Shown: positions 4,701 to 51,414 of the stretch, piece after piece | Numbering within the stretch: the first letter of the stretch is position 1 | How the letters are laid out: each line of letters begins with the position of its first letter | Virus record (IMG/VR): IMGVR_UViG_3300045988_090117 | Location: 4,812 to 68,811 of that record | DNA: 64,000 nt | Reading direction: 5' to 3' (one strand) | DNA from: a virus | Program-made: the position numbers and the translations under genes | Notes under the pieces: generated by a model | What the model was told of the DNA's origin: nothing | What the model saw: the letters and a program-made list of their open reading frames with translations, nothing else | The model's database searches: none

Positions 4701-5671
4701 TTAAATTGTTGAAGATTACCTTGTAATAACATAGAGCCATCATCACTTTGAATATTTACATTGTTAGTATTAATTGTACCAGTATTGATTTTATTCGCAC
4801 TTACAGTATCTATCATGGCATCTTTTATAAGTGCGTCTGCTATAGTAACTTTACTAGCAGTAAGGTTTAATGATTGTATATTATCCATAGTAAGATGACC
4901 ACCAACTAATGTCTGTATTTCTGCCACTGTAGCTTTTAAGTTTGTTATAGTTGCATTAATGGCATCTAAATCACCGACTTTTAAGTTATCAATTTTAGCA
5001 TTTATAGCTGTAAAGTTATTTGTTGTAAGGTCTTTGAACTCACCATAATCTGCTTTTATCTTTTGTGCCTCTAACTCAACTACTTTTAATTTTGGAACGC
5101 TTTCTCCGTCTAATAATAGATTACCTTCATCATCTATATATAGCCATGGAGCCTTTCCATCTTTTGTAAGTGTTTCTAATAGTTCTTGTAAATTTTGTGG
5201 AATTTTAGTATCTGGGTCAGTTTCTAATACTTTAGTATCAGGGTCACCACATAAATCAGTTATTGTTTGTTTAGCAGTTTCCATATCATTAGTTGCGTCT
5301 TGTAGTTCTGCACTCATTGTTTCAGTCATTTCTTCTGTACTTAATGCCTGCATTAATACACCAACAATTCTATCCACAGCCTCGTTATAATCTTCTCCAG
5401 CCTGTTGAATATCTCCTATCTTAGCGTCCTCACATTCTTCATCTTCGATACCCTCAACTTGTACATCAATTCTATCTTGGTCATCTTCTACAGTGTCAGG
5501 TACTTCATAATACGTATCATCTTCTGTAGTATCGTCAGAAGCAGCTACAGTAGCTACTTCTGATTCCTCTGCAAATTCTTCCATATCCTCATCTAGTGTC
5601 GGCCATACAATCATCTCACCGTCATCATCATATATCGGTCTATCAACGTGTTCTCGTCCATCATCCATCAT
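1742..5671 (-). CDS. Collagen-like repeat tail fibre (1309 aa): acidic N-terminus, coiled-coil region, G-X-Y tract, eight tandem ~66-aa modules
   Basis: ORF track; AGGAGGG SD upstream of the ATG at 5671. It follows the tail lysin gene. Contains [13 protein letters not shown]...GKDGK collagen triplets and repeated [21 protein letters not shown] modules. Confidence 0.8.
2144..3730 (-). repeat. Eight tandem ~60-70-aa fibre modules separated by short G-X-Y linkers; the last six alternate between two subtypes
   Basis: Subtype A is [41 protein letters not shown]. Subtype B is TYYTWI.YAD...G.GIS.DPTGK.YIG.AYNK....ES....DY.WSLIKG. Both are read directly from the ORF translation. Confidence 0.85.
3731..3973 (-). 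repeat. Uninterrupted collagen-like G-X-Y tract (27 triplets)
   Basis: Translation reads [21 protein letters not shown] ... GTP GKD GKT. The triplet periodicity also generates the spurious + and - shadow ORFs at 3572-3972. Confidence 0.9.
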
Positions 5672-43984: not shown

Positions 43985-44015
43985 CCCTCCTTTATTTTTT
44001 CTTCCATACAATTAT

Positions 44016-44044
44016 AGTATAGAAAAAACCCGGTATTTACTAAC
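44016..44044 (-). promoter_or_regulatory. Phage promoter motif GTTAGT-17-TATACT
   Basis: Minus strand reads GTTAGTAAATACCGGGTTTTTTCTATACT. Confidence 0.55.
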
Positions 44045-44049
44045 CGGGT
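44028..44049 (-). terminator. Terminator hairpin with the -35 element of the next promoter in its loop
   Basis: Minus strand reads ACCCGGT-TAGTAAAT-ACCGGGT followed by TTTTTTC. Confidence 0.5.
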
Positions 44050-44060
44050 CTTCAATATTT

Positions 44061-44768
44061 TTATATTTCTATTCCTTCTCCATACCATCTATATGTACAT
44101 TCTATATCAGTCTTCATTGGTATTTCAAATTTTCCGTCTACTACGTGTACCATAATGTACTCTAATATATCTCTCACCTCTTTGGCATTCTCTTTTGGAC
44201 ATACTCCCAATACTTCATCATGCACCGGTATGATTAATTTATATCCCAACTCTTGTAGTCTTTTATTGTCATGAATTCTTATCATTGCTATCTTTGTCAT
44301 GTCGGCTGCACTACCTTGAATTATACTGTTAACACATTGTCTTTGAGCGTCGGCTATATATCCACCATTATCCACTAATTTATATCCCTCATCCTTGGCC
44401 ATTTGTTTTATTTTTTCTTTTGCCTCCTTACCAAAGGCTCTATTCATTAATTTAAGATATTTGAAGTAAACCTCATCGCTCACCTCTGTAGTGGACCCAC
44501 CAGTAAAATCTAATGGATTAAAGGTATCAGCTAAATTAGGGTTTTCCACTGTTATCTCTATTGGATCTAGTTGCATATTTGGTAATCTTCTTTTTCTACC
44601 CCATGCAGTCTCTACAAAACCATACTCTCTTGCATTCTCTTGAGCAAATTCTACAAACTCTTTTACTCTTGGAAATTGTTTATAAAAGTCATTTATAACC
44701 TGTTGTGCTTCCTCTTTACTGATATTCATCTGCTCGGCTATACTTGTTACACCTCTACCATACATAAT
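44061..44768 (-). CDS. polA: Family A DNA polymerase, exon 3
   Basis: Begins IMYGRGVTSIAEQ (completing motif B, K..LLGIMYG) and contains VHDEV (motif C). The junction follows the intron-terminal G at 44769. Confidence 0.8.
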   Translation of the reverse strand: MMYGRGVTSIAEQMNISKEEAQQVINDFYKQFPRVKEFVEFAQENAREYGFVETAWGRKRRLPNMQLDPIEITVENPNLADTFNPLDFTGGSTTEVSDEVYFKYLKLMNRAFGKEAKEKIKQMAKDEGYKLVDNGGYIADAQRQCVNSIIQGSAADMTKIAMIRIHDNKRLQELGYKLIIPVHDEVLGVCPKENAKEVRDILEYIMVHVVDGKFEIPMKTDIECTYRWYGEGIEI

Positions 44769-45823
44769 CAGTTTATACCGCCCCTTTCGGGGTACTTTAA
44801 CACTTGTTATGCCAAGTCGGCTTAGACTATATCATCCCTCTTACGAGGGGAGCGCTTCGTATATCGTACCAATAGATACACTACTCCATAAAGGATAGTC
44901 GTTACACTTCTTCCCAATGGTAGCCGTATGCTCTTATATTTCTTTTCATACTCTCTTTTATTTGAGTATTACAACTTTGTGACGTTTTAGTTTTACATAA
45001 ACCTTGTGCAACTAACCATTTCCATGCCTCAGTATAACTACTAAATGTTTTATCAAGTTCTATAAGTTTTACCGGTTTACGACATTTACTTATTCTACCA
45101 GTATTACATTTACTTATAATATCTTTTGTTTCTTGTGTATGGTGTTTACCATAAAATGCATTATCTTTACCAGTATATTTACCTTGTCTAGCTTTACTTA
45201 GCGCTAATTTATGTTCCGGTGATTTTGCTACTCCTTTTAACTTAGATGCTCTTTGTTGTATGAAAAGTTGTCTATCAGTATCAGATAATGTACTCCAAAA
45301 TTGTCTACTGGCTTGAGACATTTTTAGTTTATCTTCATCCGTATGTTTATAACCAGGTACGCCAGCTCCACCTGGAGTCATATTATAACCATCTTTATAA
45401 CTATTAAATATTGATATATAATATACTTCTCTCTCATTTAATTTGTCTATTGAGCATTCCTCTAATAAATACATATGAAATTTATCAACACCATATTTAA
45501 GTAGTGCATTATGAAAATGTGTACCGTTATTTATATCAGAACTAGTATGTTCATACCATCTTTGTTTTAATGATGTACTTGTTTGTCCTACATATACTTT
45601 ATGATTAATATCGTCAATTACAATATAAATATATCCCATAATCTCACCCCCTTCACGGCTATCATTGTTGGTTAGCACGGTCTAACCATATGAGATATAA
45701 AATTATATTGGTTTATATATAATATTATAGCACACTTAGGCTTTAACCGTTAGCATAAAATAAAAAATTTTATACACCCCTGGTAGGGTTCACTTTCTTT
45801 TATTTGGGCTATACTTGTGGTTT
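44769..45823 (-). mobile_element. Group I intron 2 of polA (1055 nt) carrying a GIY-YIG endonuclease ORF
   Basis: The upstream exon ends in U (GGT at 45826-45824) and the intron ends in G (44769). GC-rich structured ends include a CCCCGAAAGGGG tetraloop hairpin and GATATAGTCTAAGCC, which resembles the group I S element. Confidence 0.75.
44902..45639 (-). CDS. GIY-YIG homing endonuclease (intron-encoded)
   Basis: MGYIYIVIDDINHKVYVGQT...N..Y gives a GIY-YIG core. NUMOD-like repeats (HK.ALSKA.QGK) follow. SD GAAGGGGGTGAG upstream. Confidence 0.8.
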   Translation of the reverse strand: MGYIYIVIDDINHKVYVGQTSTSLKQRWYEHTSSDINNGTHFHNALLKYGVDKFHMYLLEECSIDKLNEREVYYISIFNSYKDGYNMTPGGAGVPGYKHTDEDKLKMSQASRQFWSTLSDTDRQLFIQQRASKLKGVAKSPEHKLALSKARQGKYTGKDNAFYGKHHTQETKDIISKCNTGRISKCRKPVKLIELDKTFSSYTEAWKWLVAQGLCKTKTSQSCNTQIKESMKRNIRAYGYHWEEV

Positions 45824-46153
45824 ACCCAATAATATAGGCTTAACGGAGCTTCTACGTTGTTTTCCTTCTGGGTTAACTGTACCGTCAGGTCTAAACTCCT
45901 TACATTCTTCATATGGTTGATTGTACAATTTACTTGCTATCGTGGCATATAGGTCCTTTCCATCTAAATACGCTTGTATCATATGTTTATCGCCACTCAT
46001 ATGTGCTAAACATCTCGGCTCCTGCTGCGAAAAATCTCCACCTATTATTACATTGCCTTCTCCTGCAATAAACATTTGTCTTATATCATGTCCAGCATCT
46101 ATTACAGTCCCATCACTTAATTTCTTTGTTTTACTGGGTATATTTTGTAAATT
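45824..46153 (-). CDS. polA: Family A DNA polymerase, exon 2
   Basis: NLQNIPSK...GGDFSQQEPRCLAH (motif A, DYSQIELR-like) ...QRRSSVKPILLG. 330 nt, in frame with exons 1 and 3. Confidence 0.8.
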
Positions 46154-46882
46154 CACATTGTTAGCGTAGAGGCTCTTTATCCTCTACCTCTTATGGTTCG
46201 TATTCCCATAAGGTCAGACTATATCTCAAACTTATAAAAAGCGACCTGTCTCTTTATCTCGACGATTATTTAAATCGGTACTATGATATTTTTCTTGATG
46301 TTCTGCACGTGTAGTCAAAACTAAATTTTCTATTCGATTATCCAACTTATTCCCATTCTTATGGTGAACTATCTCATCCGATGTTAACTTACGTCCTAAA
46401 TAATCTTCCATAACTTTACGATGTACAAAATATCTATTATTCAACTCTGAAACAACTAAATAACCATCGTATAAATAAACACGTGGTTTTCGTCCTTCTC
46501 CACGTCTTTTAAGTTGTAATCGACTAGCTTTATGCAGAATACTACCCTCACTGCGATTTAAATATTCACTACATTGTTTAAGTCCTAATTTCTCATAATT
46601 TTTAACAAGCCATTCTAATTCCGTTTTTGTCCATTGTTTTCTCATATACATTACCTCCTCCATTTACATAATAGTAACATATATGGAATATTTTGTAAAC
46701 ACTTTTTATAAGTCCAGGGGCGCTCGTGGATGGGTTATTGGTGTGCTCCTCACCATCTAGTCGTTAGACTTTCACGGTACATTTTTACACTTCCCGTGCT
46801 TAGTACGGTATTAGCATCGCAGCCTTCACCGTTTCACCCCTGTATGCATCTATCATATCACTATGATAGCGCCCAATTATTT
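46154..46882 (-). mobile_element. Group I intron 1 of polA (729 nt) carrying an HNH endonuclease ORF
   Basis: Exon 1 ends ..AAT CCT (U at 46883) and the intron ends GTG (G at 46154). A GC-rich core at 46664-46882 and GATATAGTCTGACC near the 3' end resemble the group I S element. Confidence 0.75.
46232..46663 (-). CDS. HNH homing endonuclease (intron-encoded)
   Basis: [34 protein letters not shown]. The probable start MRKQW at 46645 follows the SD GGAGGAGG. Confidence 0.8.
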
Positions 46883-48199
46883 AGGATTACTACTACTAAA
46901 ACGTCCTGTCTTTGCGCCATACTGGTTGAAGTTCGCGTGTAACTTACCAGTTCTTTTGCTTATATGGTCAGGAATGGCATCAATATAAGTACTTAATAGT
47001 TTACTCATACCTCTATACTCTAATATACTATTCACTAATGGGTGGTTTAATTGTTTCAGTTGTTCTTCTCCCACGCTACGTTGACCTTTTGGTGGCTCTA
47101 ATTTTAAGACATCATAGAATAATATTACTAACTGTTGATTACTTCCTATATTAATTTTCACATCTCCAAATTCACTTATTTTGCCATACTTGTCTGGATG
47201 CTTAACTCGTAGGTCATTAAATGCGCCCTGCTTATCCAGCTTCTCTACTTCGGTATTAAATTCATTAAGAGCATTATCCATATACGTAGTATATCGTTGT
47301 TTTAACTCTTGAGCTAAGTTTGTATCTATATCTACTCCTTGTGCCTCCATATCGAATACTACTTCTATTAATGGCATTTCTATATTCCTGAATACATCTG
47401 CCACCCTTTCAAGTCCTTTTTTATAACAGTATTTTCCATCTCTGTCCAAATACTCACGTTGAAATTCATATAATTCAAAAGTCATTATAGGGTCAAAGGC
47501 TGCGTACATATAGCCAACATCTGGAGGTATTTTATTGAACTCAATGCCATTAAATAATTCACCAAATTTACCTACCTCAGCACTTTCACCAGTACAATAC
47601 TTTTGCCATAATACTTTTAAGCCATGTGGTTCATTTTCATTAAGTAAATACCCTCCAATTAATGTGTCCCAGTATGGTACTATTTTTACTCCTACCATCC
47701 AATATAATATATGCATATCGAACTTAGCGTTATGTAGCACAAATCTAATATTATTATCTGACCAAGATTGTATTAATTTCCTAACTACTTCAATAGATAC
47801 ATTACTTTGTAATTCCGTATTTGTCATATAACTTATATGTCCTACTGGAATATAAATACCTTTTTCATATGGTGTATAAAGACATATACCAGCTACTTTT
47901 CCGTCTATTCTATCAAGTCCGTTTGTCTCAGTATCTAGTGCTACTATGCCATTGGCTACTACTTTTTTATCGAACTGTTTTAACCTATCTTCACTAGTTA
48001 CTAATTCCATTCTATCTAGTCTATCAGCAAATATTTTAGTAGACATCATCTTTGCATATTCTACTTTATCCTTCATTGTCTTAGGTACTATTGATGTTAC
48101 TGGCGCTCTTTTATTTTTCTTTTTACTCAACACTTCTAACGCTTTTTTATTCGCCTCTTTGTTATTACAACGACTAAATGTATCTTTAAACAAACTCAT
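46883..48199 (-). CDS. polA: Family A DNA polymerase, exon 1 (3'-5' exonuclease domain plus N-terminal polymerase domain)
   Basis: Exo motifs VALDTETNGLD and LHNAKFDMHIL. Ends ..GAKTGRFSSSNP, which continues as NLQNIP in exon 2. Confidence 0.85.
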
Positions 48200-48211
48200 T
48201 ATATCCCTCCT

Positions 48212-48244
48212 ATAAAAAATACCAGGTAATTACTACCTGGTATT
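48212..48244 (-). terminator. Hairpin plus T-tract between the SSB-like gene and polA (leaky terminator/attenuator)
   Basis: Minus strand reads AATACCAGGTA-GTAAT-TACCTGGTATT followed by TTTTTAT, then the polA SD AGGAGGGAT. Confidence 0.5.
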
Positions 48245-48264
48245 CACTTGTTATTTATTTGTTA

Positions 48265-48948
48265 TTAAAATTCATCATCTACAACTCTACGTCTTCTGCT
48301 CTCCCTTCTTGGTGTTTCATCACGTCTACTTGGAGCAGGTTCATTATCAGTATGAGCTTTATTTCCGCCCCAGTCATATATACCATCTACTACATCTATC
48401 ATGTCAGCTTTACTCATCTTTGTCACATAAGTTCCTTCTATATCGACCTTTTCAGGGAAGTCATCTAAACATTTACCATCTTTTTCTAATGCAAACATTT
48501 CATAAGTAGTATTAGTATCACCTTTTTTTCCTTTTCTCTCAATCTCGATAGGACGCTCAACTAAGCTACCGTATCTATTCAAGAAACTTACTATTTTACC
48601 TACAAAGTTTTTACCTCTCTCCCAAACTTTAAGTTTACCATCTGTCTCATCATATAACTGTAGGAATAGTTTTTCTTGTGTTCTATATCCAGCTTTACAT
48701 AATGGACAATCATCTTTATGAACATGACCATCTTCATCAACTGCATTACAACTTATATATTTTCTTACCTTTTTACCATTAATTTCAACTTCTATTTGGT
48801 GGACTAAATAGAAGTCCATATCTTCACCGTTTGGATCTTCATATAACATTCTTACTTGTGCTATATCTCCATCATCTTTTAATGTGAAGTATTCACTTGT
48901 ACCTACACTTGTAAATTTACCTGCATCTTTAATATTTATTTTAGCCAT
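48265..48948 (-). CDS. Putative single-stranded DNA-binding protein
   Basis: Lies upstream of polA. Has a possible Zn site H.H..DCPLC, and a basic R-rich stretch ending in the acidic tip VVDDEF, as in SSB C-termini. Confidence 0.45.
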   Translation of the reverse strand: MAKINIKDAGKFTSVGTSEYFTLKDDGDIAQVRMLYEDPNGEDMDFYLVHQIEVEINGKKVRKYISCNAVDEDGHVHKDDCPLCKAGYRTQEKLFLQLYDETDGKLKVWERGKNFVGKIVSFLNRYGSLVERPIEIERKGKKGDTNTTYEMFALEKDGKCLDDFPEKVDIEGTYVTKMSKADMIDVVDGIYDWGGNKAHTDNEPAPSRRDETPRRESRRRRVVDDEF

Positions 48949-49263: not shown

Positions 49264-51414
49264 CTAACTACAACGACTCCATCCACATTCAGGACAACTA
49301 TTACATCCTCCAGTGAAGTTTAATTTATATCCACATTCAGGACAAGTGCTTACAGTAACTTCCTCTTGGTTAACTTCCGCTGTACTCATCTCAATATGGT
49401 CTGTGATATATCTTTGGTTTAGTTCTAATAGTGCTTTCCCTATAGCACTTGGACAACACTTACCTGAACTAGTATCACCTTTTACAGCATTTCTAACAGT
49501 ATAAGAAGGACAAGCTGGCACACTATTTAATTGATCTACTATCTCTTGTACAGATGCTCCTTTTTTACCAGCTAATGATATTAATCTACTAAGTCCTACC
49601 ATAAAACTATTGCATCCACCTGTGCTACCTTTGTCTAAGAATATATGGCATAAATTACCAGTTTTCTTATGGAAGTATACTGACATCCATAAGCTGCCAC
49701 ATCCAGTAGTTAATTGAGTACCATATGCTACACAATTATCAATTGAAGTATCACATAATGGTATGTGTATTGGATCTTCTTTTGGTTGTTCTTTTGGTTT
49801 ATCTACTACTAATATTCCTTCCTTCTTACATCCAGCTCTATACACTGTCAATCCTTTACATCCTTCCTCCCATGCGGCTTGATATAAATCTCTTATAGTT
49901 TCAACACTAGTATCATTAGTTACATTTACTGTACTACTTATACTAGCATCAATATATCTTTGCCATCTAGCTTGTATTGTAACTCTATCGAATGGATCTA
50001 TATTCTGAGCAGTGGCTATGTTGCCCACTTCTTCTTCTGAAATTAACTCCATATCAATCATCTTTTGTATTATTGGAGTATATACATTGTAATATACATC
50101 TTCTCCATGTAGGGATTCAGTTTTTCTTGTATAGTGTGTAGCAAATATCGGTTCTACGCCACCACTAACTCCTAACATTGTACTAATACTTCCAGTTGGT
50201 GCAATAGTAAATAATTGGCTATTTCTAAGACCATATTGTTTTATTAGTTCGATAGTATTACCTTCAATAACATTATGGTTTCTTAATACGGATATAAAAT
50301 CACTTGATAATAATAATTTTGTATCACATTGTGGAAAACATTCAGTTTCCTTAGCTAATAAGGCACTCTCTTTAAGTCCTGTGTTAACCAATGTACTACC
50401 AACTGTGTGGATTATATCAAGAGCACGTGCTGAATCATATTGACAACTCATTTTTAATAGCATATCTGCAAATCCCATTATGCCAAGTCCTATTTGTCGC
50501 CAATCACGTACACTTTTTCTTTGTTCTTCCAATGGATGTAATTCTAATCCTTCATCTAATACATTATTTAAGGCTCTTATAGCTATTCTTACTGCACTTT
50601 TGAACTCAGGGATATTAAATGCAGCTTGTGGAGTAAATGGGTTTTCTACAAATTCACTTAAGTTTAATGCACCTAATAAACAGCTACCACCTGCGGGAAG
50701 TGGCTCCTCGGCGCAGGGATTAACTCCCGCATACTCAAAGTTATCAAAGTTATTTAAAAGATTATAACTCTTTATTGTATCCCAGTATAACATTCCTGGC
50801 TCAGCCCAATCATAATTATTTTGAGCAATGTGATCTAGTATATCTCCTCTATTTGCCATGTCCTCATCACTCATTTGTACTGAGATATTACATTTTTCTA
50901 GTTTGTTATCTAGTTTAGCGTCGATAAAATCATGTACGTCAGGGTGACTACTATCTATACTAATCATTAATGCACCGCGGCGGCCATTCTGTCCAATAAC
51001 TCTTGCAGTCTGTTCCAAAACATCCATAAATGATACAGCTCCACTAGTTGTAAGGGATGCATTGTGTACTTCTGCTCCTTTTGGTCTTAATGTACTGATA
51101 TTCACGCCGCAGCCTCCTCCATAGCTAAATGTACGGGCTAACTTCATTGCGGCTGTATATATACCTTCGATACTATCTTCTGGTGGTTCTATTACATAAC
51201 AGTTACTGTAAGTAACTCCTCTATCTGTAATACCTCTATTACTAAGTATTCTACCACCAAATAAGAACTTCTTATCTACTATTAATTGTGCTACTTGTTT
51301 ATCTCCACCTGATACTCTATCTAGCCATTGGTCAAAACTTTCATCATTACGTTGATATTTTTTCTTCCAAATATCTTCTCCTAGCTCACTTAATTTCCAA
51401 TCTTTTAAATCCAT
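49264..51414 (-). CDS. nrdJ: Class II (B12-dependent) ribonucleotide reductase
   Basis: Single 716-aa chain with NPCAEEPLPAGGSC (NPCxE active-site loop) and a C-terminal zinc ribbon CPECG..CNSCPECG. No NrdB-like partner gene was seen. Confidence 0.7.
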   Translation of the reverse strand: MDLKDWKLSELGEDIWKKKYQRNDESFDQWLDRVSGGDKQVAQLIVDKKFLFGGRILSNRGITDRGVTYSNCYVIEPPEDSIEGIYTAAMKLARTFSYGGGCGVNISTLRPKGAEVHNASLTTSGAVSFMDVLEQTARVIGQNGRRGALMISIDSSHPDVHDFIDAKLDNKLEKCNISVQMSDEDMANRGDILDHIAQNNYDWAEPGMLYWDTIKSYNLLNNFDNFEYAGVNPCAEEPLPAGGSCLLGALNLSEFVENPFTPQAAFNIPEFKSAVRIAIRALNNVLDEGLELHPLEEQRKSVRDWRQIGLGIMGFADMLLKMSCQYDSARALDIIHTVGSTLVNTGLKESALLAKETECFPQCDTKLLLSSDFISVLRNHNVIEGNTIELIKQYGLRNSQLFTIAPTGSISTMLGVSGGVEPIFATHYTRKTESLHGEDVYYNVYTPIIQKMIDMELISEEEVGNIATAQNIDPFDRVTIQARWQRYIDASISSTVNVTNDTSVETIRDLYQAAWEEGCKGLTVYRAGCKKEGILVVDKPKEQPKEDPIHIPLCDTSIDNCVAYGTQLTTGCGSLWMSVYFHKKTGNLCHIFLDKGSTGGCNSFMVGLSRLISLAGKKGASVQEIVDQLNSVPACPSYTVRNAVKGDTSSGKCCPSAIGKALLELNQRYITDHIEMSTAEVNQEEVTVSTCPECGYKLNFTGGCNSCPECGWSRCS

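Follow-up and report, generated by a model that had tools for sequence, protein, structure and literature searches.

Why is a family A DNA polymerase gene (polA) of an uncultivated phage read as three separate open reading frames (ORFs), with the first break falling inside the motif TGRxSSxxPNLQNIP? The gene lies on the minus strand of a 64,000-nt stretch, positions 4,812 to 68,811 of the IMG/VR virus record IMGVR_UViG_3300045988_090117, which we analyzed at its full length and refer to as the window. Our analysis makes it very probable that the segment at 46882..46154 (intron 1) is a mobile phage group I intron of the IA-like type, which carries an HNH endonuclease ORF and occupies the proline-asparagine (P|N) boundary of the polymerase. 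The case is built on five points: the insertion is exact, its fold has covariation support, validated group I introns are homologous to it, its endonuclease motif is intact, and it bears a population signature of mobility.

Insertion point in the polymerase gene

The 3'-5' exonuclease domain and the first part of the polymerase domain (Pfam DNA_pol_A_exo1 and DNA_pol_A positions 21-126) are encoded in exon 1, whose 3' end reads ACA GGA CGT TTT AGT AGT AGT AAT CCT. Read straight into the insertion, this ORF (48199..46877) yields 440 residues and terminates TGRFSSSNP-K-stop. The next polymerase ORF, 115 residues long, opens (M)NLQNIPSK from a GTG at 46156 that consists of the final three bases of the intron. 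The Pfam DNA_pol_A profile runs from one ORF to the other, with position 126 at residue 439 of the first and position 127 at residue 2 of the second. Joined, the three exons encode a 784-residue family A DNA polymerase. Its alignment to the Klenow fragment is gap-free at both junctions (TGRFSSSNPNLQNIPSKT on TGRLSSTDPNLQNIPVRN) and superimposes SSSNP|NLQNIP on SSTDP|NLQNIP, which places the insertion between P674 and N675 in the numbering of E. coli Pol I.

Because the intron and exon 2 both begin with AA, three placements of the boundaries are possible by sequence; CCU| and G| were chosen because only these satisfy the group I rule of a U before the intron and a G as its last base. The 5' junction is thus preceded by U, and the intron ends AAUGUG|AAU, with the terminal G (omega-G) also found directly before exon 2 in other members of the intron family described below. 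The choice is further supported by the base at -1, which is T in the window and in the eight intron-plus alleles read but A in 16 of the 17 intronless alleles read. The initial annotation of this locus, made from the letters alone, had arrived at the same exon lengths (1317 and 330 nt), the same intron limits (46154-46882), the ORF ends SSSNP-K-stop and (GTG)NLQNIPSK, the junction CCT|...GTG|AAT, and the U and G at its borders. All of these hold, with the gene on the minus strand: the ORF list and the 126|127 step of the profile account for the two ORF ends, the intronless alleles, the profile, and the Klenow alignment fix the junction, and the two bases are read at 46883 and 46154. The alignment of the spliced product to Pol I proteins, which it had proposed as a check, likewise came out as expected.

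The spliced polymerase is nearest to those of Streptococcus phage Dp-1 and Clostridium phage phiCTP1 (46% identity). When 50,697 phage records were searched by megablast with the 4.3-kb locus, nothing matched, so this phage is absent from that set, and comparison of the polymerase with genome contigs returned distant relatives only (27-32% identity), from which no host could be assigned.

Alleles with and without the intron

The spliced protein, used as query against IMG/VR, retrieved 21 loci, 18 of which carry an uninterrupted polymerase ORF of 781-792 residues (16 at 91-96% amino acid identity, two at 64%). The intronless alleles (within L008-L026) are contiguous where the window intron sits: the relatives have AGT AGT GAC CCA AAC TTA CAA where the window has AGT AAT CCT|729 nt|AAT TTA CAA. 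Over a longer span, they read AGTAGTGACCCA AACTTACAA and the window reads AGTAATCCT|729 nt|AATTTACAA; the L008 allele carries AGTAGTGACCCAAACTTACAA around the insertion site. Intron-plus alleles were reached through the HNH ORF, whose homologue P0003 is 88% identical. Twenty-one contigs bearing P0003 were read, and in 8/8 places displayed a P0003-type ORF stands between a 444-residue polymerase N-terminal ORF and the remaining polymerase. The intron-plus polymerase gene is present on at least 21 contigs.

A second lineage (L068-L075) carries the intron at the same site, where it measures 730 nt and is bounded by GACCCT| and GTG|AAT. Between the two lineages, the intron is 90% identical at the nucleotide level, compared with 68-73% for the exons, which are 65% identical in amino acids. 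Intronless alleles are present for both lineages (L008-L026 for the window lineage; L020 for the second). Presence and absence of the intron in both lineages, together with its 90% against 68-73% identity, form the pattern expected of a homing intron. The introns of the two lineages are most alike in the 5' core (96.6% identity), followed by the 3' core (91%), the ORF (89%), and the loop spacer (80%), which puts the strongest constraint on the ribozyme parts. The lineage difference in the P3 helix is compensatory, CAGGGG/CCCCUG becoming CAAGGG/CCCUUG (G-C to A-U), and so is the change in P9.1.

Compared with the nearest intronless relative, the exons show few mismatches until -46 and many from -45 through exon 2. 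This divergent exon tract may be a recombination or co-conversion tract tied to the introns. Along window positions 45824-46930, identity to L008 and L009 is 99% in the 90-nt bin just upstream, ~80% from -45, and 78-89% through exon 2.

Other insertions were seen in the polymerase genes of this phage group. A ~760-nt insertion with a different HNH ORF lies between GGDFS and QQEPR of motif A (L024:1053-4165), a GIY-YIG ORF is found further 3' in the gene (L069:4297-5280), and an ORF-less gap of ~260 nt occupies the site of the window's second polymerase insertion (L071:3846-4105). Intron occupancy of the polymerase gene is therefore highly variable in the group.

Predicted group I RNA fold

The helices assigned to intron 1 run from P1 to P9.1 and include the P3/P7 pseudoknot (Table 1). 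In P1, a U(-1)•G pair marks the 5' splice site; the helix has three exon-guide pairs only, plus two intron pairs. At this very site, the L068 lineage and Bacillus phage Eyuki also have the guide UUGGG with its U•G pair. A possible P10 would pair intron AAUU (46878-46875), just 5' of the guide, with AAUU as the first bases of exon 2. P2 has a counterpart, CAUAAGU...AUUUAUG, in L044, an ORF-less relative. The guanosine-binding P7 is predicted at the sequence level as A[C]GACUA/UAGUCU with the C bulged, within R and S elements, and one P7.1 helix (GAUGG/CCAUC) is proposed. Assignment to the phage subgroups IA2/IA3 calls for P7.1/P7.2 pairings between P7 and P3' and also for matches to subgroup-specific models. 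P8 holds the HNH ORF in its loop, and its 3' strand contains the last four sense codons and the stop of that ORF. In L044, P8 is a plain hairpin (GACUUGC-AAUA-GCAAGUU), and in five other family members its loop carries insertions of 640-760 nt.

Deleting the ORF gives an RNA with a folding energy of -91.3 kcal/mol (z = -6.3 relative to shuffled sequences). Its minimum free energy (MFE) structure shows P2, P3, P4, P5, P6, P8, P9, and P9.1, and an overlapping hairpin GGUG/CACC replaces the proposed P7.1. An R-like motif followed downstream on the same strand by an S-like motif occurs in the window only at the two polymerase insertions. An S-like motif, GAGAUAGUCU, at 23961-23952 (minus) was considered as a third intron and rejected as a chance occurrence; it falls within an intact 530-residue portal ORF and has no R element nearby.

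Table 1. Features of the split polymerase locus, in window coordinates. Helices and elements are predicted. MFE, minimum free energy.
Feature	Coordinates	Strand	Description and basis
polA exon 1	48199..46883	minus	1317 nt, 439 codons; ORF list, Pfam
Intron 1, assigned to group I	46882..46154	minus	729 nt; starts AAAUAAUUGGG, ends AACAAUGUG, omega-G at 46154
P1	46885..46872	minus	exon CCU (46885-46883) and intron AA (46882-46881) with guide UUGGG (46876-46872); read from sequence
P2	46869..46850	minus	8-bp hairpin CUAUCAUA-GUGA-UAUGAUAG; MFE fold
5' catalytic domain	46842..46715	minus	R1 match, covariation in P3, P4, P6, P7.1
P3	46842-46837 with 46720-46715	minus	CAGGGG/CCCCUG
P4	46832-46827 with 46810-46805	minus	ACGGUG/UACCGU
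P5	46824-46822 with 46815-46813	minus	GGC/GCU
P6	46798-46794 with 46777-46773	minus	CACGG/CCGUG
R element and P7 5' strand	46764-46758	minus	GUCUAACGACUAGA; A[C]GACUA
P7.1	46757-46753 with 46733-46729	minus	GAUGG/CCAUC
P8	46714..46229	minus	13-bp stem GACUUAUAAAAAG (46714-46702) with CUUUUUAUAAGUU (46241-46229); 460-nt loop; MFE folds
HNH endonuclease ORF	46663..46232	minus	143 aa from first ATG; in P8 loop
3' domain	46228..46154	minus	J8/7 with S element GAGAUAUAGUCU; BLAST identity, RF00028 alignment, covariation
P7 3' strand	46221-46216	minus	UAGUCU
P9	46212-46206 with 46196-46190	minus	CUUAUGG/CCAUAAG
P9.1	46187-46181 with 46172-46166	minus	GUAGAGG/CCUCUAC
Tail	46165-46154	minus	GCUAACAAUGUG
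polA exon 2	46153..45824	minus	330 nt; starts AAT TTA CAA AAT ATA CCC (NLQNIP)
Second intervening sequence (intron 2)	45823..44769	minus	1055 nt, between KPILLG and IMYGRG (motif B)
GIY-YIG + NUMOD3 ORF of intron 2	45678..44902	minus	
R-like element of intron 2	44903-44896	minus	AACGACUA
S-like element of intron 2	44833-44824	minus	GAUAUAGUCU
polA exon 3	44768..44061	minus	after second insertion

Three lines of evidence bear on the group I assignment. First, the Rfam family Intron_gpI (RF00028, gathering threshold 50 bits) is recovered when the two sides of the P8 loop are searched separately. On 46690-46900 it gives a 3'-truncated match over model positions 1-183 (24.4 bits, E=1.6e-4) that opens 10 nt inside exon 1, as the P1 of the model requires; on the 3' piece it covers positions 203-253, including AGAUAUAGUCU, at 8.7 bits and E=4, weak when taken alone. 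The Rfam alignment places GAGAUAUAGUCUGACC on the S-element consensus AAGAUAUAGUCu.

Second, pairing was tested on an alignment made with MAFFT (A1) of 16 sequences: five introns stripped of the P8 loop, that of the window among them, and 11 ORF-less relatives. The structure tested was derived from the window's own sequence. It leaves 87.4% of cells paired; sliding the 3' partners by 1-3 columns lowers this to 35-41%. Changes on both sides are seen in 42/58 pairs. Covariation scores 0.46, compared with 0.06-0.10 for slid partners, and 0/500 shuffles attain the observed values. Covarying pairs number 5/5 in P6, 6/7 in P9, 7/7 in P9.1, 4/6 in P3, and two in P7.1; P4 and P8 also covary. The lower pairing of P4 arises because a UUGCUG/CAGCAG subgroup is offset by one column in the MAFFT alignment, and it poses no conflict. 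RNAalifold run on the relatives alone recovers P3, P4, P5, P6, and P7.1.

Third, a covariance model (R1) of the 5' domain only (P3 to P3'; 135 positions, 27 pairs) was trained on seven sequences from five Rfam-validated lineages, with the window excluded. Run over the whole window with filters off, it gives one match, at 46846-46713 (minus), full length, with 76.4 bits and E ~1e-19; the next score is 12 bits. Since 18 close relatives are uninterrupted exactly at the site and R1 matches nowhere else in the 64 kb, the insertion is not a chance arrangement. Both R1 and the RNAalifold run are free of window-derived bias because they were built on relatives only.

These results bear out the group I identity put forward in the initial annotation, by way of the partial RF00028 matches, the S element and P9, the covariation from P3 to P9.1, and the R1 score, and the S-like sequence that it had noticed near the 3' end is the one that Rfam aligns to the consensus. 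Its remark that the 5' part is much more GC-rich than the surroundings overstated a modest difference: the 5' and 3' cores are richer (40.6% and 41.0%) than exon 1 (33.0%), the HNH ORF (31.9%), or the window (32.3%). The ORF that it had placed in the middle of the intron is an HNH gene by Pfam and PHROGs, and its position is more exactly the loop of P8.

A family of related introns

By BLAST, 94 phage records contain sequences with 80-85% identity to the last ~70 nt of intron 1. In each of the seven records examined (7/7) the match falls in a gap, and in five the gap separates parts of a split gene: the polymerase gene of Eyuki, the terminase gene of Streptococcus thermophilus phages, the portal genes of Streptococcus suis and Clostridioides difficile phages, and a tail protein gene of Clostridium perfringens phages. 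Pattern searches of IMG/VR found 32 loci that share AACGACUAGAUGGUGAG, mostly ORF-less introns of the same architecture, and the family signature reads AACGACUAGAUGGUGAG...CCAUCCACGA (P7-P7.1-J) and GAUAUAGUCUGA...GGAUAAAGAGCC...GAUAACA. Members interrupt capsid, portal, terminase, tail, and other genes of uncultivated phages (L036-L067) and are found in Streptococcus, Clostridium, and Bacillus phages.

The window intron aligns with this family end to end and has P3-P9.1 in common with it, and several members are validated by Rfam: L003 (51.0 bits), L004 (58.6), L036 (65.1), L042 (55.8), L048 (74.9), L060 (54.7), and L064 (77.6), with the matches falling at positions that align with the window intron. 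The family members differ from it in that they occupy other host genes and have guides matching those exons, such as GGUGUUC for the exon GAACGCU in L036. The ORF-less intron most like the window RNA core (L044:4760-5020) lies in a structural gene (SYPDIGGAP|DLIDMTT), and its sub-lineage seems to be under-detected by RF00028. Some contigs are dense in Rfam-level group I introns within 2-3 kb, with five in L060:3793-6248, four in L048:911-3711, and three in L036:4050-6183.

The HNH endonuclease

Translation of the HNH ORF probably starts at the ATG at 46645, 8 nt past an AGGAGG, giving 137 residues (MRKQW), because most homologues have 137-140. Counted on the 143-residue form, residues 78-123 match Pfam HNH_3 (E=9.3e-15, 54.4 bits against a cutoff of 24.8), PHROG matches are to HNH endonuclease families (E down to 1.4e-15), and the Pfam search found no NUMOD or IENR1 domain. 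All 28 homologues keep H94, H95, N103, N107, and H121, and H116 is almost invariant. The AlphaFold model (predicted local distance difference test, pLDDT, 90.6) opens with two helices, at 7-29 and 33-42, and the HNH motif is borne by the strands and helices after them, so that an N-terminal helical domain (residues 7-42 of the 137-residue form) precedes a C-terminal HNH_3. Judged by its sequence, the product is an HNH enzyme, and it is not of the I-HmuI/I-BasI architecture, in which an N-terminal HNH domain precedes DNA-binding modules of the NUMOD/IENR1 type.

This protein, with a Myb- or helix-turn-helix-like N-terminal part, could possibly represent a separate uncharacterised lineage of homing endonuclease that came independently to target site 674, the site of I-HmuI, I-BasI, and I-PfoP3I, a proposal that we regard as doubtful. 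The endonuclease also appears to be moving among gut phages, across lineages with polymerases of only 65% identity. If the proposal were true, endonucleases of unrelated architecture would have converged on site 674, making it a hot spot. The enzyme might also act in competition between co-infecting phages, as does the PhiPA3 intron endonuclease (PMC11620839).

The P8 loop contains, shortly ahead of the HNH ORF at 46671-46699 (minus), a promoter-like TTTACA-17 nt-TACTAT preceded by a TG. We treat it only as a lead towards independent expression of the endonuclease, and in a promoter and terminator scan such sites were no commoner than in shuffled sequence.

Known introns at polymerase site 674

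Introns at this spot of the polymerase gene were first described in Bacillus phages. The introns that hold I-HmuI (SPO1), I-HmuII (SP82), I-BasI (Bastille), and I-PfoP3I (Pf-WMP3) all occupy site 674, and further polymerase introns are known at sites 676 and 881 in E. coli numbering (PMC3428280). In the Bastillevirinae, close to half of the polymerase genes are reported to contain between one and three group I introns, mostly IA2/IA3-like, in which the nuclease-coding loop often leaves partial model matches only (PMC11878797). The published site and the described Bastillevirinae introns place the window element in a well-described class. The initial annotation, sound in every element of its reading, did not mention this classic SPO1/Bastille site, and the find is less novel than it implied.

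The window shares with the SPO1/Bastille type a family A polymerase and the identical P|N site 674, which we checked directly in the Bastille-like phage Eyuki (Bastillevirinae). There, exon 1 ends SSAGP (GGT CCT) and exon 2 starts NLQNLP (AAT TTA CAA); the intron begins AAACAUGUAAAUUGGGACC, and pairing of its guide with GGUCCU puts a U•G at the splice site. Eyuki resembles the window in the guide UUGGG with U•G and in an HNH-family ORF in the P8 loop region, and the last ~68 nt of Eyuki/Megatron-type introns (S element, P9, P9.1) are 84% identical. In contrast, the 5' core of the Bastille-type intron has no similarity to that of the window detectable by BLAST. The endonucleases differ as well: I-BasI-like proteins (188 aa) have an N-terminal HNH, whereas the 137-aa protein of the window has a C-terminal HNH_3, and identity between the I-BasI-like protein of Eyuki and the window protein is 33% over the 61-residue HNH core only. 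The host phages also differ, the window polymerase being nearest to Dp-1/phiCTP1 and not to Herelleviridae.

The intron of Pf-WMP3 is likened to that of the window by description: it is a group IA2 intron at site 674 with a small HNH protein, the nicking endonuclease I-PfoP3I, in a T7-like cyanophage host (PMC3428280). In both, the stop for unspliced exon 1 stands at the very start of the intron. The multi-intron polymerases of Bastillevirinae (PMC11878797) are comparable in that two introns and partial Rfam matches only are found here, in a different phage group.

What is new here is the host, an uncultivated phage related to Dp-1 and phiCTP1, and the layout of the endonuclease; no new kind of element or mechanism is revealed. 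The SPO1/Bastille polymerase site is extended to this phage group. For annotation, the three polymerase-fragment ORFs and two endonuclease ORFs in 44061-48199 are best read as one 784-residue polymerase gene with two introns, and the same correction holds for dozens of related metagenomic phage contigs. The natural set of intron-plus and intron-minus alleles and the differently laid-out small HNH enzyme are usable for homing studies at a well-characterised target.

Proposed mechanism and alternative explanations

Self-splicing of intron 1 is predicted from these features. The pre-mRNA would fold into P1-P9.1, and exogenous guanosine in P7 would attack after the U of CCU, held as U•G by the guide UUGGG. 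The freed exon 1 would then attack after the terminal G and join CCU to AAU, restoring the 784-residue polymerase. If the intron were retained, exon 1 would terminate one codon later (AAA UAA). By analogy with I-HmuI, I-BasI, and I-PfoP3I, the HNH enzyme would cut or nick intronless alleles near the site, and repair would copy the intron in; endonuclease activity and target site are both presumed on this analogy.

Several results weigh against this interpretation. At the gathering score, Rfam finds no match in the intact window, and a search of 44000-48300 (4.3 kb) at E<=10 gives no Intron_gpI. The intact intron is missed because the 460-nt ORF-bearing P8 loop splits the core, and searches of the separate parts recover the family; the Rfam check suggested in the initial annotation is negative for the intact sequence at the gathering score, and the 24.4-bit match of its 5' half is below that threshold. 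L044, the closest ORF-less relative, also lies below the gathering score. As for the covariation test, a structure derived from the window is favoured against slid-partner controls, P7 is invariant in A1 and so neither supports nor contradicts the proposed helix, and P1 is without covariation support because it is short and invariant among same-site copies. As for the endonuclease, a phmmer search of the PDB with the HNH protein gave no match, and Foldseek against the PDB gave no significant one, the most probable, a weak lead, being I-HmuI (1u3e; probability 0.92, E=0.3, template modelling (TM) score 0.39, 79 columns).

The alternative that survives best, although unlikely, is that the element is a group I intron by descent that is no longer self-sufficient, a resident passenger with poor or cofactor-dependent splicing or an inactive endonuclease. 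The very short P1, the low Rfam score of the 5' half, and the sub-threshold L044 are compatible with such decay. It is opposed by the order of conservation between the lineages, in which the RNA core is better kept than the ORF and spacer, by the compensatory nature of the P3 and P9.1 differences, and by the invariant catalytic His/Asn/His of the ORF. Moreover, the polymerase is essential, and the intron-plus gene is carried on at least 21 contigs.

Far less probable is a truly split polymerase, in which a free-standing HNH gene separates two halves that are translated on their own, the GTG at 46156 being the start of the second, and come together without splicing. Gene callers would indeed give three ORFs, a GTG start is available for ORF 2, and public annotations of related split genes list separate coding sequences. 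However, no Shine-Dalgarno sequence precedes the GTG, the break falls inside the TGRxSSxxPNLQNIP motif, the boundaries follow the U/G rule, and the frame is restored exactly. The 295 non-coding bases around the ORF, furthermore, form a conserved, covarying group I fold, for which a free-standing gene would have no need.

Other intervening elements have next to no likelihood, insertion in a conserved motif being the sole point in their favour: an intein is excluded because UAA closes the frame two codons into the insertion, a group II intron is opposed by the lack of a reverse transcriptase and of any Rfam group II match, and an insertion sequence by the 729-nt length, no target-site duplication at the ends as read, and no transposase.

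The second polymerase insertion and neighbouring observations

Intron 2 interrupts the gene at motif B. A U precedes it and a G ends it, and the intronless relatives are contiguous at this site too. Rfam gives no match at E<=10 on its 3' piece and R1 gives none on the intron, which indicates that it is not of the RNA family of intron 1. Its last 63 nt, and only these, are 83% like Bacillus phage sequences such as SIOphi. Intron 2 probably belongs to a different group I lineage.

The matches returned by Rfam at E<=10 on 44000-48300, YenS (20 bits) and astro_FSE (14 bits), were rejected as chance. The YenS small RNA match, at 45692-45843 (plus), scores 20.3 bits against a gathering score of 80 (E=0.24); it is AT-rich and antisense to the 5' end of intron 2.

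In two related contigs, the ribonucleotide reductase gene adjacent to the polymerase (968 aa) carries a precomputed Pfam intein match and faint HNH matches (L071:1-485, L072:1-472). The ribonucleotide reductase ORF of the window (49264-51414) has 716 residues.

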